Positions 3,062-24,895 of a DNA stretch of 64,000 bases are shown here, in pieces. The notes under the pieces were generated by a model. The model saw only the letters and a program-made list of their open reading frames with translations. It had not been told where the DNA came from and did not search any database. How positions within the stretch are numbered: the stretch's first letter is position 1; every line of letters starts with the position of its first letter. Both the position numbers and the translations under genes were made by a program. The stretch is from Candidatus Poribacteria bacterium (GTDB taxonomy: Bacteria > Poribacteria > WGA-4E > WGA-3G), in NCBI GenBank assembly GCA_965242965.1, contig OZ251518.1:1312001-1376000 (forward strand), given 5' to 3'.

Positions 3062-4243
3062 ATGTTGACTATCAAACGCCTTGAAGCCATCTCATTGAAC
3101 GTGCCGTTCTATTGCGAGCGCGTCAGTCGCCACATGCACCGCGCCTTGACACACGGCGAGCGCGTCTACGTCTATCGCGTTGAATTCAGCAACGGCACCG
3201 TCGGGTATGGCGAAAATTTAGCAGATGAATCGGATAACATCGAACGCCTCATCGGGCAGAACCCGTTTGCGATGATGAACGATGACAGCATCGGGTTCGG
3301 CATCCAGATGGCACTTTTTGATGCAATCGGGAAAGTCGTGGACGTGCCAGTCTATCAACTCGTTGGCACAAAGGTTCGCGAAAAATGCCCTATCTCGTGG
3401 TGGGATATCGACATGCCGCCCGAAGATTGGGTGGCGGAGGTAGAAGAATCGGTGCGCCGAGGCTATACTTCCGCGAAACTCAAAGCACGCCCATGGCGAG
3501 ACATCTTCGCGCAGGTAGACGCAGTCGGCGACGCTGTGCCGGCAGATTATCGGTTGGATATTGATTTCAACGGCTTCCTCCGCACGGCGGACAACGCCAT
3601 CCCGGTTCTACAACGGCTTGACGAACACCCGAACGTCGCCATTTACGAGAGTCCGTTTTATCTCGGTACCGATGTCACAGGTGCCGGGAGGTTGCAGGCG
3701 GCTGTCCAAAAACGCATCGTTGAGCATTTTAACGAGGCATGTTTGCATGCGCGCTGTTGCGGCGGGTTCGTTGTCGGCGGCGGCGTAACTGCACTGCGAA
3801 GGACTAACGCGCTCTGTGCATCCTTTGAGCAACCGTTCTGGTTACAAATGGTAGGCACCGGCATTACGACAGCGTATGCGGTGCATCTCGGAGCCGTGCT
3901 GTCGCAAGCCGAATTACCTGCGATTACCTGTCACGAGTTATGGGAGTCCGATCTCCTCAAAAACCGCCTCCCTGTTCTTAACGGAACAATTCAGGTTTCG
4001 GAGGCTCCTGGGCTCGGCATTGAGGTAGATGAGGCTGCCTTAGCGGCGTATCGCGTCGAGAAAACCGAACCTACCCCGCAGCAACGCTTCCGCGAAAGCG
4101 AGTATACGTGCCGGGTGCATATTCCGAATGCTGATGGCGGCGAACACATTCACGATTTCACAGGCGAAGATGTCTATTATCCGGCGTTTAGTGAGGGTGA
4201 GTATCCGGGGTTCGTGCCGGGGGTATGGATGGAAGTCGTGTGA
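3062..4243 (+). CDS. Mandelate racemase / muconate lactonizing enzyme family protein
   Basis: AKLK, DIDFN, YESP, APGLGIEVD; RBS GGAGG; divergent from the previous gene. Confidence 0.85.
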   Translation: MLTIKRLEAISLNVPFYCERVSRHMHRALTHGERVYVYRVEFSNGTVGYGENLADESDNIERLIGQNPFAMMNDDSIGFGIQMALFDAIGKVVDVPVYQLVGTKVREKCPISWWDIDMPPEDWVAEVEESVRRGYTSAKLKARPWRDIFAQVDAVGDAVPADYRLDIDFNGFLRTADNAIPVLQRLDEHPNVAIYESPFYLGTDVTGAGRLQAAVQKRIVEHFNEACLHARCCGGFVVGGGVTALRRTNALCASFEQPFWLQMVGTGITTAYAVHLGAVLSQAELPAITCHELWESDLLKNRLPVLNGTIQVSEAPGLGIEVDEAALAAYRVEKTEPTPQQRFRESEYTCRVHIPNADGGEHIHDFTGEDVYYPAFSEGEYPGFVPGVWMEVV

Positions 4244-4266: not shown

Positions 4267-4626
4267 TCACAGATTGGGCATAGGTTTCGTTCGGATGCGA
4301 TTTTCATCAGCAACCGCAAAAACCCCTGCCCAATCGGTTTGACTTTCCAACACGCTCACCACGGTATGGACGGTGACAGTTGCGGAAGCAGATGGCAGAC
4401 GAAATAGAATTATCCCGAAAGGGGCGTTCAATCCAAAACGGTGGACTAATTCCCCAAAATCTTTATCAAAGGTAATCAGGGTTCGCTTTTGCGCTGTCGC
4501 GAGAGCCAGGACTTCCACATCATTGATACTCGGGTGCGCTTCCTTTATCCATAGGACATCGTGTCCACGGCCTCGAAGCGTTTGCACGAATAAACTCGGG
4601 AGGTTTTCATCAGCTATGATGCGCAT
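4267..4626 (-). CDS. DUF5615 / Mut7-C-like PIN-domain toxin
   Basis: MRIIADENL..GHDV..DVEVL..LITFDKDFGEL typical of the VapC45-like PIN family; 3 nt downstream of the DUF433 gene. Confidence 0.9.
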   Translation of the reverse strand: MRIIADENLPSLFVQTLRGRGHDVLWIKEAHPSINDVEVLALATAQKRTLITFDKDFGELVHRFGLNAPFGIILFRLPSASATVTVHTVVSVLESQTDWAGVFAVADENRIRTKPMPNL

Positions 4627-4629
4627 TGA

Positions 4630-5151
4630 TTAGTTCCGTAGCGGTTGGCAAGGCTTTGCCGCGGCCAGCATCGCACTCGCGTAAGCAAGGCAGGCGCGGA
4701 TATCCTCAAGCACAAGACTCGGATAATTCTCCAGAATCTCTGCCTCACTCCATCCGTTCGCCAGCAATTCAAGGATGAATTCAACGGTTAACCGCGTGCC
4801 TCTGACAGCCGGTCTGCCCATCACGATGTTTTTATCAGTGGCGATGCGACCTATTAACAGATGCGCGCGCTGATCTTTCATCTTGAGCCCGAGTTCCGTT
4901 ATCTGCCAATATCCGCGTTGGGGCGATGCGACGAAGCCCTCGGATTTCAAGTCCAGTCTGGCCCAATTGCAACGATGATAAAACCGCGACTGCCCACTCG
5001 ACAAACTTTCCTCTAACTCCGCCTTAGTCAGCGAAAAGTGCTCAACGAGGGTATCCACGAGTGCCTTCCAACACCACACTTTCCCATCGGCGAGACATTG
5101 GAGAAGGACAGGTTCAATTTCTTTGTTTGTCGGCAATGAACTCACAGCCAT
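4630..5151 (-). CDS. Mrr N-terminal winged-helix fused to DUF433 antitoxin
   Basis: N-half LVEHFSLT..SGQSRFYHRCNWARLDLKSEG..RGYWQITELG (Mrr_N); C-half GRPAVRGTRLTVEFILELLANGWSEAEILENYPSL (DUF433); ATG 5151 with RBS GAGGAG. Confidence 0.85.
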   Translation of the reverse strand: MAVSSLPTNKEIEPVLLQCLADGKVWCWKALVDTLVEHFSLTKAELEESLSSGQSRFYHRCNWARLDLKSEGFVASPQRGYWQITELGLKMKDQRAHLLIGRIATDKNIVMGRPAVRGTRLTVEFILELLANGWSEAEILENYPSLVLEDIRACLAYASAMLAAAKPCQPLRN

Positions 5152-5226
5152 TTTAAGTTCTCCTCTATCCATTGAAATGATGCCGCTGCTTTTCGGTGCA
5201 GCGACTGTTTCCAAAGTTTACCATAT

Positions 5227-5259
5227 AGGATACCACAATTTGACGCGTTTGTCAAATTG
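5227..5259 (-). promoter_or_regulatory. Sigma70-type promoter with overlapping palindromic operator
   Basis: TTGACA (5255-5250), 17 bp, TATCCT (5232-5227) with TG extension; perfect inverted repeat CAATTTGAC-N6-GTCAAATTG at 5236-5259. Confidence 0.65.
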
Positions 5260-5266
5260 GTACACT

Positions 5267-5818
5267 GGTAGGAGAGACCTCCCGGTCTCGATGTTCCCGT
5301 AGCGCGGGGCCCTCGGATGCCATACGCGCATCCGAGAGGGTTTCCCCCGCGATGGTTCAAAAACCGTTTTTTATCGTAGCGCGGGGGCCTGTCCCCCGCG
5401 ATCGCCATCGTCAAGAGGGGCGTTTTAGGGCCTTTGGGACTTACATGTCTATAGAAACACGTATCGCGCCGTTTTCAAGGGCCCTTAATAAAAACACGCG
5501 CGGCCCTGGCAAAACCTATTAAGGACCTAAAGGACCTTAGTGTTCTTCGCGATCGCGCGTGCTATAGACATTCAGGTCCTACAGACCTGAAGAGAATAAG
5601 AGACGTTTTTTCCGTAGCGCGAACGCTGGCGAGGGACAGGCCCTCGCCCTACGGTGAAGTGCAGTTTTTATCGTAGCGCGGGGGCCTGTCCCCCGCGAGC
5701 GTTGGAGTGCACCGACGCTGGCGAGGGACAGGCCCTCGCCCTACGTGAAGGGGCGGCGTTTTTTCACCGCAGCGCGGGGCCTGTCACCGCAACGTTGAGC
5801 GAGTTATGGAACACCCTT
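5267..5818. repeat. Composite REP-like array
   Basis: GTAG REPs, ATAG module at about 5425-5590, terminal gagttatggaacaccct at about 5801-5817. Confidence 0.85.
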
Positions 5819-5832
5819 AGTTATCCTGACTC

Positions 5833-7272
5833 CTAATCGCGCGAGGTAGCAGGTAATTCTAATTGATGTTCACTAATATGACGCTCGCTTTTGTTGCGAG
5901 TCCTGATAACCCACGGCACCTTGATGCGTTGGTTGATGGACTCAGGATTTGCGAAGTAGGCATCATCGATGTTCCAGAATTGGAGGCGATGATATCGCTG
6001 TCCATTATGTTCGATGTAGCCTTCTCTTTCACGTTGTTCCAGCATGCTTTTTGTCGCATTGCAGTTAAGCATAATGAAGATGCCGATATCTGCCTCTTGA
6101 TTACGCATGGAGGTGCAGAACGCTCGGACCTGGGCAATGCTTGGATTCCCTGACTTTACCTCGGCGACGACTTTGCCAACGTATTGTGCCATGTTGCTGG
6201 AGTCCCATATCTTCACTGGGAGTACCCCATCGATGCCACCATCGCCTACGTTGGTGGTAGGTTCTAATCCCAACCGTGTCACAGCCCAGTTAGCGAAGTC
6301 GTGATACTTTTTCTCGTCGCGGGCTAACTTGATTGCCTCTTGCACGGTTGTCGGATACCCCTCAATGTCATAATCAATGGAGGAATTGAATCCGTAACGC
6401 TCTCGTAGCCGTTTTTGCATCGGGTCGAGGGCGAGAATGGTTAAGTCAATGCCTATCCATTGCCGTTCTAATGCCTCGGCTGCATCAATGGTGGTGCCAC
6501 ACCCCGCGAACGGATCAAGCACAACATCGCCGGGGTTTGAGGACGCTTTGATGATGCGCTCGTAGAGGGCGCGAGGTTTCTGCGTAGGATAACCGAGTCG
6601 TTCGTGCGCCCTATTGTTTAAAGAGGGGATGTCCGTCCAATAATCAAGCATGCCTTTCTCTTTACCACCCATCCTCGCGCTTGTCGCGGGGACAGTTGGC
6701 TTGTCGAAATAATACTCTTCACCCTTTGAGTAGAAGAAAATAATGTCGTGTTTCTTCGAGAAACACCGCTTTGAACTACCGCCAAGTCCATAGCACCAGA
6801 TAATCTCGTTACGAAAATTCGCCGCGCCGAAAATCGCATCCATCATGCCCTTGAGGTAGTGACTCGCCGACGCATCGCAGTGCAGATAAATGCTACCGTC
6901 ATCGCGCAAGACCCGGTGCATCTCGGCGATACGCGGTCCCATGAATGCGAGATATGCTCGGAGCGACGCTGGCTGTCCACTTACGGCATTCTGTAGCACC
7001 ATATCATATCCCTCAAGGCAGTTGTTAAGTCGCTTGTAGGTGTTGTTCCCGCGTGCCAGTTGCCGAATCTCATCGCGCGCTTTTTCGGCGGGTTCGTCCC
7101 ACGTCCACGTATCCACGAACGCTTTTTTCATGGCATCGGATTCGGGGAGGAATGTGTTGTAGTTGCGCCCGCTATTGAACGGCGGATCCGTGCAGCAAAG
7201 GTTGACTGACTTGTCTGCGATAGCCTCGCGCATCACGGTGAGATTGTCTCCGAAAATCATTCGTCTTATCAT
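5833..7272 (-). CDS. Beta-class N4/N6 DNA methyltransferase fused to Mrr-like PD-(D/E)xK domain (copy 1)
   Basis: DPPFNS (motif IV) precedes DPFAGCGT (motif I); YPTQKP; C-terminal GDGGIDG..AEVKSG. ORF-track start 7347 lies in a repeat end, so ATG 7272 is preferred. Confidence 0.9.
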   Translation of the reverse strand: MIRRMIFGDNLTVMREAIADKSVNLCCTDPPFNSGRNYNTFLPESDAMKKAFVDTWTWDEPAEKARDEIRQLARGNNTYKRLNNCLEGYDMVLQNAVSGQPASLRAYLAFMGPRIAEMHRVLRDDGSIYLHCDASASHYLKGMMDAIFGAANFRNEIIWCYGLGGSSKRCFSKKHDIIFFYSKGEEYYFDKPTVPATSARMGGKEKGMLDYWTDIPSLNNRAHERLGYPTQKPRALYERIIKASSNPGDVVLDPFAGCGTTIDAAEALERQWIGIDLTILALDPMQKRLRERYGFNSSIDYDIEGYPTTVQEAIKLARDEKKYHDFANWAVTRLGLEPTTNVGDGGIDGVLPVKIWDSSNMAQYVGKVVAEVKSGNPSIAQVRAFCTSMRNQEADIGIFIMLNCNATKSMLEQREREGYIEHNGQRYHRLQFWNIDDAYFANPESINQRIKVPWVIRTRNKSERHISEHQLELPATSRD

Positions 7273-7334
7273 GTGTAATTCTCTTTTTGTTTGAGTGTGC
7301 GGGCGGCTCCACGCCGCCCGCCGGGGATTTGGTT

Positions 7335-7704
7335 GAGGGGGTTTCATAAATCGATGGCTTCCCGGTAGGAGAGACCTCCCGGTCTCGCTATCTTCCAGTA
7401 GGAGAGACCTCCCGGTCTCGATGAGGTAAGGCGTGCCCGCTCTTGCCCTGTTCGGGTGCGCGCCGCCTATAGTTCAGGAGCACCTGCTCCTGAACTGTTT
7501 GTGATGAGACGCTTGCAAACGACAGCAGGATGGCTCTCCTACGGGTGTGCATCGAGACCAGGAGGTCTCTCCTACGGGGACATCGCTCGCATTGTGACAG
7601 GGACGGTGCACCGCCTGGAAGAAGAAATCGAGACCAGGAGGTCTCTCCTACGGGGAAGAGGTGATGCGGGAATAGGAACTCCCGCACCACACCGAAATAC
7701 CGAA
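7335..7704. repeat. Composite REP-like array with left GAGGGGGTTTCATAAATCG end
   Basis: Several GTAGGAGAGACCTCCCGGTCTCG copies in both orientations and a partial GTGG hairpin at about 7661-7692. Confidence 0.8.
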
Positions 7705-9069
7705 TCATTCACCCTCTTCGGCGAAATAATCCGAATCCACCCGCTTAATCTCATAAGACTTGGTGACAGAAACGCCAACGTTGTAGTCGATCATGGACTG
7801 CGCGAGTTGATGGCCATCAATCAGGACAATCTTGGTATCCCTGGAGTCAATCGACGACACATATTCCCTGGCACGGTTGGAAAACGCCGAGGTTGTGATG
7901 AAAATCCCTTTCCGAGCACGCCGCCCTGACAATGCTCCGACAAAATCACGAACAGGCGGCTCACCAACGTCGGCCTGCCACCTTTTCGCTTGAACGTAAA
8001 TCACGTCAAGACCGAGGATGTCTTCGTTAATGACCCCGTCAATGCCGCCATCACCGCTGCCACCTACGGCTCTTCCGGCCTCTTCGCGCGAACCGCCGTA
8101 ACCCATCGCAACGAGCAGATCGATAACGAGTTCCTCGAAAAAGTCGGGCGAGTTATCCTGAATCCGTTGAAGCAGGTCTGCCGTTAGTGCGTCTTGAATC
8201 TGTTGATAGTTTGTCTCAATAGATTCCTCGGCGGCTTGGGCTAAGTTGTCTTCAACGGGAATATAATCACTAGCTGCAACGGCGGAGATCGAGGTAGCAG
8301 TGTCCGATTCAGACCCTTCGCGAATCTGTTCCGACTTAGCAAACCACCCTCTCCTAGGTTTCATCAGCTGCCCCGATTTGACTAAGTTATTCGCCGCGAT
8401 AGTTACCACATTGCGGAAAAGTTTGTAATAGTTGGACTGAGCCGACCCCCGAGCGTTCCTCTGCCGATCTGTCAGTGAAAAATGTTCCGCCAATTGATTC
8501 ACGACATCCTTGGTGGACATTCCGCGATCTGGATAGTCAAGTGCCAGCAAAGCAGCTTGCACGGCTTCGTTCGACGGTAACTCAACTTCATAATCCTGGT
8601 CGGTTTCAGGATCAAAAGCCGTTCTCGTCACGGTTGCAAAAATTCTATCTCCCGAAGCATCCGAGTTTCCTTCACTAGCGGACTCTCGTGAAGATTCGCG
8701 AACTCTTTCAAGTCCGCTCTCCGCGTGGCGATTAGAAATGCCACGCACGCCCTTCTGCGGCTGCGATTTGCGCCTCGGCGGCATGCAACCGTATTTCTTG
8801 AAGTTCGCGTCGGAGAGTTCCAACCCCTTATAGGTAAGAAACTCTTTGACGTGATCTCTCCAGATCGGTGCGCGGCGCATACGTTCCATTTGGACATAGG
8901 AAAGCCCAGCCCGAAGACATATGGTGTCGCCAGACGTGGCATACCAGGTTACCCCTTCATGCCTCAACTCAAGCATTTGGGGAATTGACAACTTGGAATC
9001 AATAGACGCTTCTGCGCCATCGATATCCACAAAATTAATCTGCATCGAGTTGTCCTGAATCCTCTGCAT
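7705..9069 (-). CDS. mrr: Mrr family restriction endonuclease with N-terminal extension
   Basis: PDFFEELVIDLLVAMGYGGS..GSGDGGIDGVINEDILGLDVIYVQAKRW..KGIFITTS..LIDG; Mrr_N domain mid-protein. Confidence 0.92.
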   Translation of the reverse strand: MQRIQDNSMQINFVDIDGAEASIDSKLSIPQMLELRHEGVTWYATSGDTICLRAGLSYVQMERMRRAPIWRDHVKEFLTYKGLELSDANFKKYGCMPPRRKSQPQKGVRGISNRHAESGLERVRESSRESASEGNSDASGDRIFATVTRTAFDPETDQDYEVELPSNEAVQAALLALDYPDRGMSTKDVVNQLAEHFSLTDRQRNARGSAQSNYYKLFRNVVTIAANNLVKSGQLMKPRRGWFAKSEQIREGSESDTATSISAVAASDYIPVEDNLAQAAEESIETNYQQIQDALTADLLQRIQDNSPDFFEELVIDLLVAMGYGGSREEAGRAVGGSGDGGIDGVINEDILGLDVIYVQAKRWQADVGEPPVRDFVGALSGRRARKGIFITTSAFSNRAREYVSSIDSRDTKIVLIDGHQLAQSMIDYNVGVSVTKSYEIKRVDSDYFAEEGE

Positions 9070-9194
9070 AAAATACCTCCATTTTAGCGCGATGTGGTGC
9101 AGGAATCAGGACCTCGCACCACATCGAAATTCGGCGGGCGCGTATTGTCGCGATGCCCGCGTTTCTCGGTTTTGATGTCAAACCGAATTAGCCG
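9063..9194. repeat. Structured intergenic direct repeat, copy A
   Basis: Near-identical to 10003-10127; stems GATGTGGTGC/GCACCACATC and GCGGGC/GCCCGC; includes RBS GGAGG and the ATG CAG start. Confidence 0.9.
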
Positions 9195-10009
9195 TGGAAA
9201 ACGTTGTACTCAAGCAGAAGCCGGGCGAGTTCCTCTCCATCAATGAGGCCAACGATCCGAAAGCCTTCCTCAGGGTTTTTTGCTGATGATTCTGCAGCCT
9301 CTTTAGCACGTTTGCTAAACCCCGAGGTGGCGACAAAAATGCCCATCCTTGCATCTCGCAATTTTAAGGCATTCTTGAAGTTGTCAATAGCCGTGTTTGA
9401 GACGTTTATTTGCTGACGTTTCGTTTGGATACAAACCTCATAGATGCCGAGCCTATGATCCTTAACGATTCCGTCAATACCACCGTCCCCAACGCGCCCC
9501 ACGTGTTCTCCGGTGCCATATCCCATTTTACTGATAAGATCGACAACCAGTTGTTCAAAAACAGTGGGATCCATTTGCCGGAGTTCTTGTAGCAACGCTT
9601 CCTCCAACGTCTTTCGGATTCCTTGATACGGTTTTTCAACAGGAACCGGGGGATCGGAATCTAGCACAGGCTCGGAATTCGGTGGGCGCGGTGTAGTTGG
9701 GGAGAGACAGTACGGTTTCCCCTTGCCATTCGGCTGCACTAACTCCCCTTCTCTTAAGAGGTTTTGAAACGCGGGGTGTACAACCCTATAGAGAAAAACG
9801 GTGCGCCCGGAACGGAACTCTGCTCTTCGCTGTCCATCAGTGAGCTGCAAATTATCAGCTAATGTATCTACTGTATCCTTCATCCGAATTCCCTCGGGCG
9901 GAAATTCAAGTTCAAGAATCGCGTTTTTGACTTCTTCAGGTGCAGGCATTTCTATCTCGTACTTTTGTTCCGTTTCAGGATCCAAAGCCCGTCGCTTTAC
10001 TGTCTGCAT
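9188..10009 (-). CDS. Mrr-like restriction endonuclease (second paralog)
   Basis: FEQLVVDLISKMGYG..GDGGIDG..IQTKR..GIFVATS..LIDG; Mrr_N-like N-terminus similar to the 7705 gene (ALDPETEQKYEIEMP vs AFDPETDQDYEVELP). Confidence 0.88.
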   Translation of the reverse strand: MQTVKRRALDPETEQKYEIEMPAPEEVKNAILELEFPPEGIRMKDTVDTLADNLQLTDGQRRAEFRSGRTVFLYRVVHPAFQNLLREGELVQPNGKGKPYCLSPTTPRPPNSEPVLDSDPPVPVEKPYQGIRKTLEEALLQELRQMDPTVFEQLVVDLISKMGYGTGEHVGRVGDGGIDGIVKDHRLGIYEVCIQTKRQQINVSNTAIDNFKNALKLRDARMGIFVATSGFSKRAKEAAESSAKNPEEGFRIVGLIDGEELARLLLEYNVFHG

Positions 10010-10127
10010 AAAATACCTCCATTTTAGCGCGATGTGGTGCAGGAATCAGAATCCCGCGCCACATCGAAATTCGGCGGGAGCGTAGTTCGCGCTGCCCGCA
10101 TTTCTCGGTTTTGATCCGAATTAGCCG
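10003..10127. repeat. Structured intergenic direct repeat, copy B
   Basis: Same sequence as 9063-9194 with substitutions mostly in loop regions. Confidence 0.9.
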
Positions 10128-10141
10128 CGATTAGGCGGTTT

Positions 10142-10456
10142 TCAATCGTGCCAATAGGGCGGAGGCGGCACAATGCCCGCCAATACGTCAAGTCCCCGCT
10201 TCGTTATCCGCCAAGATCCGTAACCGGCCGATTCCACAAAACCTGCTTCTTTCAAGTCCTGTTTCGCCCAATTACAGCGATGATAAAACCGCTTCAGACC
10301 GGCTGGTAATCTTTCAGCTAACTCTTGAACAGTCAATGAATAATGACCTGCTAGAGCGTCCACAAAGTCCTTCGTCCGCCATATTCTGCTATCACCGAGC
10401 AGTTCAAGAAGAACAGGCTCAATTTCTCTACTCGTAGGCAATGAACTCACAGGCAT
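10142..10456 (-). CDS. Stand-alone Mrr N-terminal winged-helix protein
   Basis: MPVSSLPT..IEPVLL..RFYHRCNWAKQDLKEAGFVES..WRITKRG; strongly similar to the N-half of 4630-5151; RBS GGAGGAG; TTGACA..TATATT upstream at 10495-10524. Confidence 0.85.
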   Translation of the reverse strand: MPVSSLPTSREIEPVLLELLGDSRIWRTKDFVDALAGHYSLTVQELAERLPAGLKRFYHRCNWAKQDLKEAGFVESAGYGSWRITKRGLDVLAGIVPPPPYWHD

Positions 10457-10617
10457 TATCACATCTCCTCCCAATCAATTCAAAATATGTCCATAATATA
10501 CCATATTTCCACTTTTTCTGTCAAACTAATTTTTCCGATGAAAAAAGACTTGCTATCCTCAAAACCTTATAGTATCCTTAAGAACGGTTTGCAGAGCTCT
10601 TTTGGAGGATACCAAAC

Positions 10618-11454
10618 ATGAACGAAGAACTTTTTGTGAGTCAAGAATGGACACCTGTCAACGGATGGACATCCGGAATTGAAGGACCGGCGTGCGATGC
10701 AGAAGGAAATCTATACGCCGTTAATTACGCTCGACAACACACCATCGGCAAGGTAACGCCGCAAGGCGAGGAGAGCGTTTTCGTTGAACTGCCCAACGGA
10801 AGCATCGGCAACGGCATCCGTTTTAATAGCGAAGGCTTCATGTTCATCGCCGATTATACCAACCACAACGTGCTGAAAGTGGACATGGAGACGCGAGAAA
10901 TCAGCGTCTACGCGCACGAACCCAACATGAATCAACCAAATGACTTGGGTATCGGCGCGAACGACATCCTCTACGCCAGCGATCCGAATTGGAGCGAATC
11001 CACCGGACAACTCTGGCGCGTGGATACAGATGGCAGCGTGACGTTGCTTGAAGCGGACATGGGCACCACAAACGGCATTGAAGTCAGTCCCGATGAACGG
11101 ACGCTCTATGTCAACGAATCGGTGCAACGCAATGTTTGGGCGTATGATTTGTCTGCGAACGGGGAAATCAGCAACAAGCGGTTGCTCATCCAATTCCCCG
11201 ATTTCAACATGGATGGAATGCGGTGCGATGTCGCGGGAAATCTCTACGTTACTCGGCACGGGAAAGGCACGGTGGCGAAACTCTCGCCTGATGGAGAAGT
11301 GCTGTTGGAGGTAGAATTAATAGGCAAACTTTGCACCAACATCGCTTTTGGTGGGCGTGATGGATGCACATGCTACGTCACGATGGCGGACCGGGGGAAT
11401 ATAGAGACGTTCCGCGTCGATTTGCCCGGCAGGAGTTGGCAGTTATTGCAATAA
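10618..11454 (+). CDS. SMP-30/gluconolactonase family protein
   Basis: IEGP, PND, NGIEVSPD, DGMRCD, TNIAFGG motifs. Confidence 0.92.
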   Translation: MNEELFVSQEWTPVNGWTSGIEGPACDAEGNLYAVNYARQHTIGKVTPQGEESVFVELPNGSIGNGIRFNSEGFMFIADYTNHNVLKVDMETREISVYAHEPNMNQPNDLGIGANDILYASDPNWSESTGQLWRVDTDGSVTLLEADMGTTNGIEVSPDERTLYVNESVQRNVWAYDLSANGEISNKRLLIQFPDFNMDGMRCDVAGNLYVTRHGKGTVAKLSPDGEVLLEVELIGKLCTNIAFGGRDGCTCYVTMADRGNIETFRVDLPGRSWQLLQ

Positions 11455-15415: not shown

Positions 15416-15477
15416 GGATGACGCTTTTGTAAAGGCGGATGCCTCTCTCCAAAGGAGACACCGATAGAGAATTCATC

Positions 15478-17010
15478 ATGGCAAACATTCCCCAACTCAA
15501 CTCTCTTCACTACGGCGATAATCTTCACATTATGCGCGCGTGGCCGGAACGCCTCGTGGACATCGTCTACGGAGATCCGCCGTTTAATTCCAAGCAGAAA
15601 TATCATCAACTTTACAGAATCGAGACCGGGAGGTCTCTCCTACCGGGAGACAACAAAGGCACGCGGTCTGCTTCTCTCAAAGCGTTCGATGATTCGTGGT
15701 TTTGGACACCCGCCGCGCACCAACGCGTGGAAGAACTTATCTCAATGTCCGCGCTCCCTATCCACAAAACGATCGAAGGGCTCTACACGATGCTCGGCGA
15801 TTGCGGACAGATGGCATACCTGAGTTACATGGCACTCCGCATCCTTGAGATGCATCGGCTTTTGAAGGATAACGGCAGTCTCTACCTCCACTGCGATATG
15901 ACGACGAGCCACTACATCAAACCCGTTCTGGACAGCATCTTCGGGCCAAAGATGTTTCGGAACGAGATTATCTGGAGTTACCATCGATTTTCGCGAAACT
16001 CCCGCAAGCAGTTCGCGCGCATGAACGACTCCATCTTCTTCTATTCCAAATCGGAAGATGGGAACACCTTCAACTTCCAGTATATCGAACCTCGCGATAC
16101 CACTCGGTACCAGAAAGGATATCACACCGCGTCAGACAAAGGTGTCAAAAAGTTGCTGGTGTATGACATGGAGAAGGTGAAGCAGGCGGGGGTAGATCTT
16201 GCCAAATACGGTAAGGTTGTGCAGACGCAAGCGCAACGCCCGCTGATGGGGCAAGTCTGGAACGACATTCCGATTCTCAATTCGCAGTCGAAGGAGCGGC
16301 TCGGCTATGATACCCAGAAGCCGCTCGCCTTGCTGGAGCGGATTATCAAAGCCTCTAGCAACGCAGGCGATGTTGTATTGGATCCGTTCTGTGGTTGTGG
16401 CACCACGATAGCGGCCGCACACAACCTCGGTCGGAAGTGGCTCGGCATCGATCTGAATCCGAGTGTGCTTGATGTCATCGTGAGTCAACGTCTCAAGGGG
16501 CATAAGGTGCCGATTACGGGTATCCCTGCGGATTTCGCCAGCGCGAGCCGCCTTGCCACCGATAACCGTCGCCATTTTGAGATATGGGCACTCAATCTGA
16601 TAGACGGCCTCGCGCCGAATGAGATGGGCGGTGCCGATGGCGGTATTGATGGCAAAGGTAACCCTGTCGAAAGCCCTGAGGGGGATTACAAAAAACTCAT
16701 CCTTGGGCAAGTCAAAAGCGGGAAGTATTCGCTCAGTCAACTCCGCGATTTCCTCGGCGTTGTGCAGAGTGAAAACGCCGTGATGGGTATCTATATCACG
16801 CTGGAGGCGTTGACACCCGTTGCGAAAAGAAACGCGGAGACGCTTCTGAGCAAGTTCGGCGAAGTCCAGATCGGGACAGAGGTTTTTCCACGCATCCAAC
16901 TCTTTTCCGTTGAGGCGTATTTTCGGGAGGGCAAACTTCCGCGCATGCCGCACATGAAGAATCCGTATACGGGGAAGCCTTATGAGCGGACGCTGCCGCT
17001 CGGTTTATAG
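15478..17010 (+). CDS. Beta-class DNA methyltransferase::Mrr-like nuclease fusion (copy 2) with in-frame REP insertion
   Basis: DPPFNS..YDTQKP..DPFCGCGT..GADGGIDG..GQVKSG; REP at 15619-15645 encodes IETGRSLLP. Confidence 0.9.
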   Translation: MANIPQLNSLHYGDNLHIMRAWPERLVDIVYGDPPFNSKQKYHQLYRIETGRSLLPGDNKGTRSASLKAFDDSWFWTPAAHQRVEELISMSALPIHKTIEGLYTMLGDCGQMAYLSYMALRILEMHRLLKDNGSLYLHCDMTTSHYIKPVLDSIFGPKMFRNEIIWSYHRFSRNSRKQFARMNDSIFFYSKSEDGNTFNFQYIEPRDTTRYQKGYHTASDKGVKKLLVYDMEKVKQAGVDLAKYGKVVQTQAQRPLMGQVWNDIPILNSQSKERLGYDTQKPLALLERIIKASSNAGDVVLDPFCGCGTTIAAAHNLGRKWLGIDLNPSVLDVIVSQRLKGHKVPITGIPADFASASRLATDNRRHFEIWALNLIDGLAPNEMGGADGGIDGKGNPVESPEGDYKKLILGQVKSGKYSLSQLRDFLGVVQSENAVMGIYITLEALTPVAKRNAETLLSKFGEVQIGTEVFPRIQLFSVEAYFREGKLPRMPHMKNPYTGKPYERTLPLGL

Positions 17011-21712: not shown

Positions 21713-23302
21713 ATGAACGTTACACCGCAAGTCAACACGCTCTACTACGGCGACTGCCTAGAGGTAATGCGTGGTTGGGGGGACGGCTGGGTAGACGAGG
21801 TCTATCTCGATCCGCCGTTTAACTCCAACGCTGACTATAACATCATTTACGGCACGGACAGCGCGGGCACTCGCACGGCACAAGTGCAGGCGTTTACAGA
21901 TACGTGGACATGGGATGAAGCCGCCATCTCGCGCGTCAATGACATTGAACTTGACGTGCTCCATCCCGCGCACCGAGCCGTTATCGTCTTAAAAACGGCA
22001 CTCGGCGAATCCGGCATGCTCGCCTATGTCAGTTATATGGCGGAACGCCTCGCCGAGATGCATCGGCTCCTGAAGCCAACAGGCACCCTCTGGTTACACT
22101 GCGACCAGACAGCGAGCCACTACCTGAAAATCGCGCTGGATCTTCTGTTTGGCGCGCGGAACTTTTGCAACGAGATTATGTGGAAGAAGACGAACTCGCC
22201 GAAGCCGCAGGCAACCTTCTTTGGCGCGCAGAAAGACGTTATCTTGGTTTACGCGAAGGATGTATCGCAGACCAAGTTCCACAAAATCTATCGCGAACAC
22301 GATGAGAAGGCATTGAAAATCTATCGCTACGATGACAACGATGGGCGTGGGATTTACCGCACAATTTCAATTGAGGCCCATGGATTACAGCGTTCTGCCG
22401 GCCGAAAACAGTTTGAGTTTAAGGGACGCGTCGCGCCTTATCTCTACAGTCTTGAGCGTTTGCAAGCGTGGGATGCTGAGGGACGTATCCATACCTCGCG
22501 GAACGGGTTGCATCGTCGAAAGCAATACCTGAATGAAAGTCCGGGCATCGTTTGCTCCGATATTTGGACAGACAATGAGGTAAACCCCATTCAGGGGAAA
22601 GAGCGGTTGTATCCGACGCAGAAACCACTAGCGTTGCTGGAACGCGTCATCAACGCTGCCACCGATGAAGGCGATATTGTGCTGGATCCGTTTTGCGGTT
22701 GCGGCACGACAATCGTCGCCGCACACAAACTCAACCGAAAGTGGATTGGGATAGACATCTCACCGTTTGTCGTCGACATTATTGGGACGCAGCGGTTCGG
22801 CGGCATGAAGTTGAACACCGATGGCATCCCAACCGATATGGAGAGCGCGAAGAAACTCGCGCGCGAAAAGCCGTTCCATTTTGAGGCATGGGCCGTTACA
22901 CGCGTCCCTGGGCTCGCCGCTAATGATGTGCGCAGCGGGGACCGGGGTATTGACGGCCGCGGCGTGCTTGTCACGAAACCGGCGGGGGCAACATCCAATG
23001 TCGTCTTGGCGCAGGTGAAAGGTGGTAGATTTCAGTTGAGTCATCTTCGCGACTTCCTGTGGGTGCTGGAACGCGAAAAGGCACTCTTTGGCGTATTTAT
23101 CACCTTGGAGCCGATTACGTCCGCGCAAGCGAAATCGGAAATGGCGCGGCTTGGGGAGATAACGGTGGGGGCATCGGTGTATCCGCGGGTGCAATCCTGG
23201 TCGATCCAAGATTACTTTGCGGGCCGTTTGCCGCAGCTGCCGCCCCTGAACGATCCCTATACGGGCAAACCGATGAGAACGGTGCTGCCGTTGGGGGTGT
23301 AG
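21713..23302 (+). CDS. Beta-class DNA methyltransferase::Mrr-like nuclease fusion (copy 3)
   Basis: DPPFNS..YPTQKP..DPFCGCGT..GDRGIDG..AQVKGG; RBS AAGGAGG. Confidence 0.92.
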   Translation: MNVTPQVNTLYYGDCLEVMRGWGDGWVDEVYLDPPFNSNADYNIIYGTDSAGTRTAQVQAFTDTWTWDEAAISRVNDIELDVLHPAHRAVIVLKTALGESGMLAYVSYMAERLAEMHRLLKPTGTLWLHCDQTASHYLKIALDLLFGARNFCNEIMWKKTNSPKPQATFFGAQKDVILVYAKDVSQTKFHKIYREHDEKALKIYRYDDNDGRGIYRTISIEAHGLQRSAGRKQFEFKGRVAPYLYSLERLQAWDAEGRIHTSRNGLHRRKQYLNESPGIVCSDIWTDNEVNPIQGKERLYPTQKPLALLERVINAATDEGDIVLDPFCGCGTTIVAAHKLNRKWIGIDISPFVVDIIGTQRFGGMKLNTDGIPTDMESAKKLAREKPFHFEAWAVTRVPGLAANDVRSGDRGIDGRGVLVTKPAGATSNVVLAQVKGGRFQLSHLRDFLWVLEREKALFGVFITLEPITSAQAKSEMARLGEITVGASVYPRVQSWSIQDYFAGRLPQLPPLNDPYTGKPMRTVLPLGV

Positions 23303-23311
23303 AGGATAAGA

Positions 23312-24895
23312 ATGAGCATCGTTACGCCGCAAGTCAACACATTTTATTACGGTGATTGTTTGGAGGTGATGCGCCGTTGGGAAGACAACTGCGTTGATGC
23401 AGTCTATCTCGATCCGCCGTTTAACTCCAACGCCGACTACAATATCATCTATGGCACGAGCGGCACGGCGCAGGTGCAGGCGTTTACGGATACGTGGACA
23501 TGGGATACGGAGGCGATTCAGCGCGTCCATCACATTGAACACGCTGCGAATCATCCGGCGCAGCAAGCCATAGTTGGGTTAAAAGTGTTACTCGGCGAAT
23601 CTGGCATGCTCGCCTATGTCAGTTATATGGCGGAACGCCTCGCTGAGATGCATCGGCTCCTGAAACCGACAGGCACGCTCTGGTTACACTGCGATGAAAC
23701 AGCGAGTCACTACCTGAAAATCGCGCTAGATCTCTTGTTTGGCGCGCAGAACTTCTGCAACGAGATTATGTGGAAGAAGTTGAGCTCACCGAAACCACAG
23801 GCAACTTTCTTTGGCGTGCAGAAAGATGTTATCTTGGTTTACGCGAAGGATGTATCGCAAACCAAGTTCCACAAAATCTATCGTGCACACGATGAGAAGG
23901 CATTGAAGCCCTATCGCTACGATGACAACGATGGGCGCGGGCCTTATCGCACTAATGCCCTTTCAAATAAGACCTCGTTAGGCGGCTTCGGGAAGATGCG
24001 GACGTGGGAGTGGCGAGGGGCAACGGCGCGCTGGATTTACAGTCTTGAGAAACTGGAAGCACTGTGGGCGGATAGGCGTATCCATACCTCACGGAACGGA
24101 CTGCATCGCATGAAGCAATACCTCCACGAGAGTCCCGGCATCGTCGTTTCCGATATTTGGACAGATAGCGATGTCAACCCGATTCAGGGGAAGGAGCGGT
24201 TATATCCGACGCAGAAACCGCTAGCCTTATTGGAACGCATAGTCAAGGCTTCCACCGATGAGGGAGATATTGTGCTGGATCCGTTCTGTGGTTGCGGCAC
24301 GACAATCGTCGCCGCACACAAACTCAACCGGAAGTGGATTGGGATAGACATCTCACCGTTTGTCGTCGACATTATTGAGACGCAGCGGTTCGGCGGCATG
24401 AAGTTGAACACCGATGGTATCCCAACCGATATGGAGAGCGCGAAGAAGCTCGCTCGCGAGAAGCCGTTCCATTTTGAAGCATGGGCTGTTACACGCGTCC
24501 CCGGGCTCGCCGCCAATGATGTGCGCCGCGGTGACAGGGGTATTGACGGCCGCGGCGTGCTTGTCACGAAACCGGCGGGGGCAACATCCAATGTCGTCTT
24601 GGCGCAGGTGAAAGGCGGTAGATTTCAGTTGAGTCATCTTCGCGATTTCCTGTGGGTGCTGGAACGCGAAAAGGCACTCTTTGGCGTATTTATCACTTTG
24701 GAGCCGGTTACGTCTGCGCAAGCGAAATCGGAAATGGCGCGGCTTGGGGAGATAACGGTGGGTGCGTCGGTGTATCCGCGGGTGCAATCCTGGTCTGTCC
24801 AAGATTACTTTGCGGGCCGTTTGCCATCGCTGCCGCCAATGAACGATCCCTATACGGGCAAACCGATGCGAACGGTGTTGCCATTGGGGGTGTAG
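23312..24895 (+). CDS. Beta-class DNA methyltransferase::Mrr-like nuclease fusion (copy 4, tandem duplicate of copy 3)
   Basis: Near-identical to copy 3 except two variable blocks; 9 nt intergenic. Confidence 0.92.
   Translation: MSIVTPQVNTFYYGDCLEVMRRWEDNCVDAVYLDPPFNSNADYNIIYGTSGTAQVQAFTDTWTWDTEAIQRVHHIEHAANHPAQQAIVGLKVLLGESGMLAYVSYMAERLAEMHRLLKPTGTLWLHCDETASHYLKIALDLLFGAQNFCNEIMWKKLSSPKPQATFFGVQKDVILVYAKDVSQTKFHKIYRAHDEKALKPYRYDDNDGRGPYRTNALSNKTSLGGFGKMRTWEWRGATARWIYSLEKLEALWADRRIHTSRNGLHRMKQYLHESPGIVVSDIWTDSDVNPIQGKERLYPTQKPLALLERIVKASTDEGDIVLDPFCGCGTTIVAAHKLNRKWIGIDISPFVVDIIETQRFGGMKLNTDGIPTDMESAKKLAREKPFHFEAWAVTRVPGLAANDVRRGDRGIDGRGVLVTKPAGATSNVVLAQVKGGRFQLSHLRDFLWVLEREKALFGVFITLEPVTSAQAKSEMARLGEITVGASVYPRVQSWSVQDYFAGRLPSLPPMNDPYTGKPMRTVLPLGV

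Follow-up and report, generated by a model that had tools for sequence, protein, structure and literature searches.

Between two conserved metabolic genes of a Candidatus Poribacteria genome (GenBank assembly GCA_965242965.1) lies an island of restriction genes that includes a toxin–antitoxin (TA) pair, whose antitoxin joins a DUF433 domain to Mrr_N, the winged-helix DNA reader of Type IV restriction enzymes, and whose toxin is a DUF5615-type PIN protein. The DNA analyzed, hereafter the window, is a 64,000-nucleotide stretch of contig OZ251518.1 (positions 1,312,001–1,376,000 of the forward strand), and coordinates given below are window positions unless another locus is named. The host is a sponge symbiont with a 5.7-Mb genome in 2 contigs, from a phylum represented by 176 species genomes; the stretch is present in sponge metagenomes, and every part of the island was found among short contigs of sequencing runs from four studies. 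We hold, with about even confidence, that a VapBC45-like TA pair has here been captured by a Type IV restriction operon, the fusion protein still acting as the antitoxin while its Mrr_N domain adds DNA anchoring and perhaps control.

The Mrr_N::DUF433 antitoxin and its PIN partner

The island (4267–10456) comprises six genes, all co-oriented on the minus strand (Table 1), and the gene inventory of the original prediction, which had been drawn from the bare sequence, was borne out by Pfam and PADLOC. The PADLOC models identified both Mrr genes as mREase_IV and the DNA methyltransferase (MTase) as MTase_II, and made no call for the PIN gene.

The fusion gene starts with the ATG at 5151, since MAVSSLPT begins all 11 of the 11 family members in the alignment. 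These members are 55–60% identical overall and share 84 invariant columns, many of them within Mrr_N, with no stops. The DUF433 half matches PF04255 with 81.2 bits (cut-off 23.6), and the Mrr_N half is closely related to the solo Mrr_N protein encoded at the other end of the island: 53 of 95 residues are identical (56%, BLASTP E 4e-37), including the stretches VSSLPT, EIEPVLL and RFYHRCNWA, so that the near-identity claimed earlier for these two genes stands. The antitoxin gene comes first, with 3 nt between its stop codon and the PIN start. The PIN protein keeps the conserved residues E7, D36, T52, D54 and D56 (alignment of 13 sequences) and is encoded by a single copy in the host genome (tblastn, E ≤ 1e-3). 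In a survey of 146 unrelated loci from many phyla, a DUF5615-type PIN gene lies directly 3′ of 96 of the 157 DUF433 matches, 15 of which lacked downstream room. As a side observation, contigs of two sequencing runs (X1; X3 also at 4638) are without 1 and 3 bases at 4638 and 4650, and these losses, which fall close to where the fusion gene ends, would give a different C-terminal tail in some strains.

An AlphaFold2 model of the fusion based on a 73-row alignment (pLDDT 80), which replaced a poor first model from an 11-row alignment (pLDDT 57), contains an N-terminal winged helix resembling PadR and MarR (residues 1–102, Z 9–10) and a C-terminal domain with the DUF433 fold of 2GA1 (residues 101–164, Z 10.8, root-mean-square deviation 1.8 over 64 residues). 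The nearest described layout is that of VapBC45 (Rv2018/Rv2019), in which an antitoxin of winged helix plus DUF433 is likewise encoded just 5′ of a Mut7-C/COG4634-like PIN gene. The fusion differs from VapB45 in that its winged helix is a bona fide Mrr_N domain (74 bits) copied from the neighboring solo gene of a Type IV operon. Rv2018 (5AF3) ranks 3–4 in a Foldseek search with the fusion model, aligned across both domains (171–172 columns), a weak match with E 0.017–0.022 and TM scores of 0.23–0.28; the sequence profile of the fusion family finds 2GA1 and does not find 5AF3 at E ≤ 1, nor is 5AF3 among the 50 rows of a VIA-align comparison with the model.

Pairs of COG2442/DUF433 with PIN proteins were predicted to be TA modules in 2009, when fusions with a winged helix-turn-helix (wHTH), e.g., Rv2018/Rv2019, were also noted (Makarova, Wolf, Koonin; PMC2701414). 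Rv2019 is described as an RNase antagonized by Rv2018 in vivo (PMC5175181), and the VapB45 structure as well as the PIN_10/COG4634 classification are covered in a survey of PIN domains (PMC5499597). VapBC10 of Synechocystis PCC 6803 is reported as a validated PIN–COG2442 pair in which the antitoxin binds to its own promoter (PMC3834315); as described there, it resembles the present pair in combining a DUF433 antitoxin with a PIN toxin, from co-transcribed genes, and differs in that VapB10 is a plain single-domain antitoxin with no restriction genes involved. The architecture had originally been put forward as undescribed, and this now needs dividing: wHTH–DUF433 antitoxins beside PIN genes were already on record (PMC2701414), whereas in those portions of the literature on these domains that were covered, supplements aside, neither the Mrr_N::DUF433 fusion nor the HsdS::DUF433 fusion introduced below was found described. 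What is already known, then, is the wHTH–DUF433 antitoxin and the presence of TA pairs within restriction islands; what is added here is an Mrr reader on the antitoxin, in a restricted lineage.

Origin and distribution of the fusion

The fusion recurs beyond this assembly, within narrow phylogenetic limits, being restricted to a single genus plus close relatives in metagenomes. When 5.8 billion clusters were searched, both domains were recovered together in 11 of them at 90% identity clustering (55–99% identity, 173–216 aa, 100 member sequences). Among 1.84 billion representatives, 11,010 matches were obtained at E ≤ 0.001, of which one was full-length; representatives matching in two stretches were also considered as candidates, and all 10 of the 10 tested turned out to be tandem DUF433 proteins rather than fusions. 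A genome scan yielded a full-length fusion at 1 of 66 loci, in a metagenome-assembled genome of Candidatus Poribacteria, and a metagenome scan yielded none at the best 80 of 138 loci. Within the phylum, all three genomes of this genus carry the fusion, while G112 has Mrr_N with a low-complexity tail instead. At L106:9434–10156 of that genome, a solo-type Mrr_N (84 bits) is followed by a 150-residue tail rich in K/R/S/T, among plasmid- or phage-looking neighbors.

A phylogeny of 37 Mrr_N domains groups all 11 from fusions into a single clade (100/98), nested within a solo-type clade (92/89); the fusion, as this tree has it, arose once. The N-domains of the nucleases themselves sit on a separate Mrr_N-like branch with a length of ~1.6–1.8. 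The earlier notion of one module reused throughout the island therefore holds for the solo gene and the antitoxin, which belong to one canonical clade, and only loosely for the nucleases, whose clade is very distant, with the exception of a 361-aa Mrr protein in a congeneric genome (G066). The linker between the two halves is homologous to a former leader: the longer linker version aligns to the translated sequence just 5′ of the plain antitoxin start in G169 (...KEENIMQGQIPRTLAERIV versus ...KAENI--EKTQRRLPKRIV), which fits read-through of an upstream Mrr_N open reading frame into the antitoxin gene. By this route, a copy of a solo-type Mrr_N gene would have read through into the antitoxin gene, whose 5′ leader would have become the linker. 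Linker length varies among members and is ~30 residues shorter in the window's lineage, which, to judge from the alignment, later lost these residues.

Such an origin also suits a neutral accident, in which a stop codon was lost between neighbors in a crowded island, Mrr_N has no function and a selfish TA pair is decaying. That the linker is former non-coding leader of variable length, shortened in the window's lineage, would be expected of it, as would the restriction to one genus with close metagenome relatives and the loss of the PIN gene in G066. Nevertheless, both halves are conserved among members that have diverged to 55–60% identity, with 84 invariant columns and intact reading frames, the deep branches within the fusion clade of the Mrr_N tree point to a certain age, and a second family built by the same logic, HsdS::DUF433, is widespread. 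We regard this explanation as improbable.

The genomic setting in relatives bears on how closely the TA pair is tied to the restriction genes. Within the genus, the flanking MR_MLE and SGL genes are 94–95% and 93–94% identical, respectively, and the island proteins 51–76%; across the family, the MR_MLE left flank is 76–90% identical and is present in 108 of the 112 genomes. These two conserved metabolic genes border a variable chromosomal defense hot-spot: the order is PIN / fusion / Mrr / Mrr / solo in G065 and fusion / one 361-aa Mrr / solo in G066, and G069 represents the empty site, with the two flank genes 329 nt apart. Eighteen sites of the family were fetched, 7 chosen for a nearby DUF433 match and 11 across genera, so that the following counts are biased for DUF433. 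An Mrr gene or remnant is present at 15 of the 18 sites; Mrr, plain DUF433 and PIN occur together at 4, Mrr and DUF433 without PIN at 2, and DUF433 alone with a remnant of an Mrr N-domain at one (G067). The genes thus do co-occur in relatives. At the sister-genus sites, the antitoxin is plain (74–113 aa) and stands with its PIN gene directly behind Mrr, and in G169 the Mrr, plain DUF433 and PIN genes abut or overlap. Two further observations at these sites concern other open frames. In G067 (L187:10890–12530), a 546-aa protein, which has a motif resembling a P-loop and a C-terminus resembling a nuclease, is encoded between the Mrr remnant and the DUF433 gene that lacks a PIN partner, and in G066 (L105:12856–13965) a stretch that looks by eye like DUF433 (GTPVFKNTRVPIKNLIDYLEAG...) lies 5′ of and in frame with the SGL gene and may be the remnant of another antitoxin.

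A PIN search gave matches at E ≤ 1e-15 in 53 of the 112 genomes. Close orthologues outside the genus (54–63% identity) are found at 19 loci, 16 of which were examined (those of G130, G134 and G114 were left out). Six of the 16 are at this very site beside Mrr or its remnant (G169, G175, G162, G151, G146, G123), and the other 10, in 9 genomes, are elsewhere, with no Mrr in the ~7–8 kb fetched per side. Because of these 10 loci, the TA pair is regarded as a mobile two-gene unit, and the link to Mrr belongs to one chromosomal site. In other phyla, neither Mrr_N nor Mrr_cat was found near any of 145 DUF433 loci, many of which have short flanks.

Nucleases, putative regulatory elements and a passenger gene

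The two Mrr proteins score 219 bits (454 aa) and 121.7 bits (273 aa) with the mREase_IV model, and GDGGIDG and Q-x-K are seen in the sequences, which we take to be the catalytic motifs of the Mrr_cat domain of PD-(D/E)xK type. Their own N-domains are degenerate: that of the 454-aa protein matches Mrr_N with 30.2 bits, barely above the cut-off of 29.5, and that of the 273-aa protein, with 17.2 bits, is below it. The arrangement is like that of an Mrr Type IV enzyme in having Mrr_cat on both nucleases and the canonical reader on the solo and fusion proteins, and unlike it in that the nucleases and the canonical reader have separate genes, the enzyme class being assigned here from sequence. The 454-aa protein has an additional 145 residues at its N-terminus (relatives align only from residue ~136–146 on), and its residues 1–145/150 have no Pfam family match and no usable match in the ESM Atlas. 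This extension (8635–9069) is in frame and absent from the Mrr genes of all relatives; its opening codons (MQRIQDNS) recur inside this gene as a 17-nt repeat (8149–8165 and 9046–9062), which hints at a rearrangement.

Orthologues of the solo Mrr_N gene occupy the same position in G065 and G066 and are 72–75% identical. The gene heads its operon behind a conserved strong promoter, and no repeated operator was seen there. The solo protein could be a regulator or a split-off reader subunit serving the two nucleases with degenerate N-domains; the latter is suggested by the 361-aa Mrr of G066, a Rosetta-stone hint in which a canonical Mrr_N (62.8 bits) is followed by a degenerate N-domain and then Mrr_cat. 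The controller (C) proteins of restriction–modification systems have an Xre-type HTH, unlike the Mrr_N domain of the solo gene. Other nuclease-free or multiple arrangements of Mrr_N were encountered on the way: a 326-aa open frame with three tandem Mrr_N domains and no nuclease in the host genome (G000:C1:3984309–3985178; L004/L005/L007) and proteins of 604–938 aa with multiple Mrr_N domains in the representative search (P0051, P0052, P0085, P0147).

Of the sigma-70-like sites in the region, the two with the most matches precede the solo gene (11/12 positions, the best) and the fusion gene (10/12), the total number of such sites (8) being not above that in shuffled sequences (5.6 ± 2.1). The solo promoter is kept in all three genomes of the genus. 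The 5′ leader of the fusion gene, which includes a short hairpin, forms an invariant block in the three genomes, and its −35 region is not conserved. A further element of 113–132 nt, which we refer to as element E, occurs in one copy before each Mrr gene; the two copies are 88% identical over 125 nt and are the sole two loci in the host genome. G065 and G066 each have two copies as well, with between-genome identity of 81–84%. In these relatives the element spans L104 12210–12334 and 11192–11320 and L105 12170–12291 and 10555–10663, with two or three hairpins. In its predicted long stem, G-U substitutions preserve pairing on the sense strand only, and there is one compensatory pair, which suggests that element E is an RNA element of the solo–Mrr–Mrr transcript. 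Rfam gave nothing at the gathering score over the whole window, and at E ≤ 1 there was no match to element E, with only chance miRNA-like matches on palindromes of the repetitive extragenic palindrome (REP) type.

One of the six genes appears to be foreign to the system. The MTase domain of the 504-aa protein is firm (162 bits), while the Mrr-like C-terminal tail once proposed for it falls short of the threshold (Mrr_cat, 18.4 bits; cut-off 21). The 5.7-Mb genome has 60 MTase-like loci, 30 of which cover nearly all of the protein, and the gene is missing from the G065 and G066 islands. Because of these ~30 full-length paralogues and the absence from the relatives' islands, the MTase is on sequence grounds a passenger inserted between REP clusters and unrelated to the system; the defense cluster as first delineated accordingly keeps its other genes and loses this one. 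The MTase-like loci include 5833–7347, 15460–16923 and 21731–24817 of the window plus 57 more in G000:C1, with several tandem pairs. When both strands of the genome are scanned with up to 3 mismatches allowed, the three REP-like motifs match 1838, 2775 and 4180 times, and most of the window's longer intergenic gaps are taken up by such palindromes (e.g., 5268–5293, 5368–5404, 5623–5653, 7365–7423, 7551–7656).

Table 1. Features of the island, its borders and the HsdS::DUF433 loci of other Poribacteria (window positions except in the last four rows)
Feature	Position	Strand	Remarks
DUF5615 PIN-like toxin (COG4634 type)	4267..4626	-	119 aa; DUF5615 PF18480, 79.4 bits
Antitoxin fusion Mrr_N::DUF433	4630..5151 (open frame to 5214)	-	173 aa; Mrr_N 74.2 and DUF433 81.2 bits
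Mrr_N part of the fusion	~4879-5109	-	Pfam; short linker between the two parts
DUF433 part of the fusion	~4678-4845	-	Pfam
Sigma-70-like promoter 5′ of fusion gene, TTGACA-17-TATCCT	5227..5255	-	10/12 matches
REP-like palindrome cluster	5215..5832	.	Outside the system; genome-wide repeats
N6/N4 DNA methyltransferase with C-terminal nuclease-like domain	5833..7347	-	504 aa; N6_N4_Mtase 162 bits
Second REP-like palindrome cluster	7348..7704	.	
Mrr-type Type IV nuclease paralogue	7705..9069	-	454 aa; Mrr_cat 117.3 bits, Mrr_N 30.2 bits
Element E copy 2, intercistronic hairpin	9070..9194	-	Ends at ribosome-binding site and ATG of 454-aa Mrr
Mrr-type Type IV nuclease paralogue, degenerate N-terminal winged helix	9188..10009	-	273 aa; Mrr_cat 96.8 bits
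Element E copy 1, between solo Mrr_N and 273-aa Mrr	10010..10141	-	
Solo canonical Mrr_N winged-helix gene, first in Mrr operon	10142..10456	-	104 aa; Mrr_N 71 bits
Near-consensus sigma-70-like promoter 5′ of solo gene, TTGACA-18-TATATT	10495..10524	-	11/12 matches
Left flank, enolase-superfamily MR_MLE gene, hot-spot border	3062..4243	+	Pfam
Right flank, SMP-30/gluconolactonase-like (SGL) gene	10618..11454	+	Pfam
HsdS::DUF433 (G131)	L216:5983-7404		
HsdS::DUF433 (G105)	L217:6763-8223		
HsdS::DUF433 (G070)	L218:6483-7910		
HsdS::DUF433 (G149)	L219:6018-7592		

Proposed mechanism and its alternatives

The capture of a TA pair by a Type IV operon, which we favor, would work as follows. The DUF433 half would hold the PIN RNase inactive, as befits an antitoxin, whereas the Mrr_N half would serve as a second, restriction-type DNA-binding module, anchoring the complex on DNA and probably helping to control transcription. 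Were the antitoxin lost or titrated, the RNase would be freed, and the pair would thereby serve the restriction island as an addiction module or an abortive-infection back-up. We infer the toxicity of the PIN protein and its neutralization by the fusion, as well as DNA binding by Mrr_N, the nature of its ligand and any role in defense.

The same antitoxin domain has, by all sequence appearances, been joined at least twice to the DNA-recognition module of a restriction system. In 15 genomes of 3 families, DUF433 matches fall inside open frames of 472–556 aa, and all four such frames inspected encode Methylase_S (HsdS) with a C-terminal DUF433, followed by a DUF5615 PIN gene (Table 1). These loci are within operons that have hsdM-like genes and ~1055-aa hsdR-like genes (both named by eye), and both domains are present in 78 of the 80 database clusters matched by the linker plus the DUF433 part. 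At the junction, an apparent old antitoxin start is still seen (...GMQP...IPYPL..RLH.D.KIL.GKP). Although circumstantial, this independent HsdS::DUF433–PIN family in the same phylum is what keeps alive the idea of an RNase coupled to restriction.

The PrrC anticodon nuclease is kept latent by the Type Ic enzyme EcoprrI, and the prr locus has the order hsdM–hsdS–RNase–hsdR. By analogy, and in line with the original prediction, the Mrr_N half could be a sensor that, when occupied by modified phage DNA or a DNA-mimic anti-restriction protein, causes DUF433 to release PIN and shut the cell down. Several observations lend weight to such a guard. The added domain is a canonical Type IV DNA reader (74 bits), not the HTH of a generic regulator; a second restriction reader, HsdS, carries the same antitoxin domain with PIN behind it in complete hsdM–hsdS–...–hsdR operons (4 of 4 loci; 78 of 80 clusters), an order that recalls the prr locus; and in six sister-genus genomes the TA pair follows Mrr as a tightly linked part of the operon. 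As in the PrrC–EcoprrI case, an RNase gene would be located inside a restriction locus, silenced via its DNA-recognition part and kept as a back-up, with the differences that there is no sequence relationship and that the link here would be covalent, the reader being fused to the antitoxin.

Published precedents point in the same direction. Readers of modified bases with EVE and ASCH domains are described in TA and Type IV contexts, including an ASCH–HsdS fusion (Bell et al., 2020; PMC7641849). The concept is alike, in that a reader of nucleic-acid modification is wired to toxin and restriction modules, while the reader fold is PUA-like there, with GNAT and PIN fusions among the partners, and a winged helix here; the term “Mrr” has no occurrence in the main text of that article. 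In Belliella baltica, a DUF433–PIN_10 pair is reported alongside HsdM/HsdS and GmrSD (Matelska et al., 2017; PMC5499597, section 17), i.e., the same type of TA pair in one island with a Type IV enzyme, from genes that are separate there rather than fused; according to the same section, no direct physical connection of TA modules with restriction systems had been demonstrated as of 2017.

Against such a guard stand the 10 loci in 9 genomes at which the TA pair (54–63% identical) has no Mrr within ~7–8 kb and so works without it, which weakens the idea of a restriction-coupled RNase and counts against obligate coupling. Moreover, every Mrr-linked case is at one chromosomal site and may go back to a single historical event, the 145 DUF433 loci of other phyla have no Mrr_N or Mrr_cat nearby, and the PIN gene has been lost repeatedly with the antitoxin kept (G066, G153, G164, G067). 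Taken together, a guard of this kind appears doubtful, if far from negligible, and the original interpretation of the island is supported in part. The broader proposition, that DUF433 in Poribacteria is a covalent leash by which a latent PIN RNase is tied to the subunit that recognizes DNA in whichever restriction system surrounds it (Mrr_N in Type IV, HsdS in Type I), as a PrrC-like guard firing on modified DNA or on an anti-restriction block, is in our judgment unlikely.

A different division of labor would make DUF433 a docking adaptor instead of an inhibitor, bringing PIN to the DNA read by Mrr_N or HsdS as part of a two-subunit restriction-like enzyme. This parallels the layout of Mrr itself, reader plus nuclease, and PIN genes are indeed reported in hsdM–hsdS operons that have no evident restriction subunit (PMC5499597, section 17). 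The HsdS::DUF433 loci inspected, however, do have a ~1055-aa hsdR-like gene (named by eye from its N-terminus), the TA pair stands alone at many loci, and the characterized PIN relatives are described as acting on RNA and being neutralized by the DUF433 protein (PMC3834315, PMC5175181). We consider a recruited nuclease highly improbable.

To return to the captured TA pair with a DNA-anchored antitoxin, a number of points weigh against it. First, the predicted binding of the fusion to PIN, in itself a point in favor of the pair, amounts to weak support. The complex prediction scored 0.40, versus 0.00 for the best of 3 controls, with contacts agreeing between runs by at least 89% and a partner pLDDT of at least 82; it was graded as weak support on a scale in which 58 of the 80 solved complexes attain the mark, as do 2 of the 110 mismatched pairs, scores of ≤0.60 among those reaching the mark being obtained by 7 of these 80 complexes and by both passing mismatches. 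Second, a by-eye search of promoter alignments revealed no operator shared by the solo and fusion promoters, and a regulatory role of Mrr_N is therefore without direct support. Third, the RFYHRC(N/A)WA motif of the recognition helix shows no variation among the 11 fusions and is retained by most solo proteins (a few differ by 1–3 residues), which fits a generic ligand, e.g., modified DNA, better than a locus-specific operator. Fourth, the PIN gene of G066 was found neither in the island nor genome-wide (E ≤ 1e-15), with an intact fusion gene kept, and this loss may reflect either a PIN-independent role of the fusion or ordinary TA decay. Finally, the HsdS::DUF433–PIN family hints that attachment to a restriction reader does more than autoregulation.

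Overall, the triggering of TA modules in defense islands is largely unsolved, and here is an antitoxin covalently joined to a restriction DNA reader. If the leash-like arrangement is true, the two fusions to unrelated readers would be convergent solutions rather than accidents; without any real coupling, the locus would remain a clean record of a domain fusion by read-through into a neighbor's leader. The question on which the locus bears is whether a shared reader can connect restriction with abortive infection.

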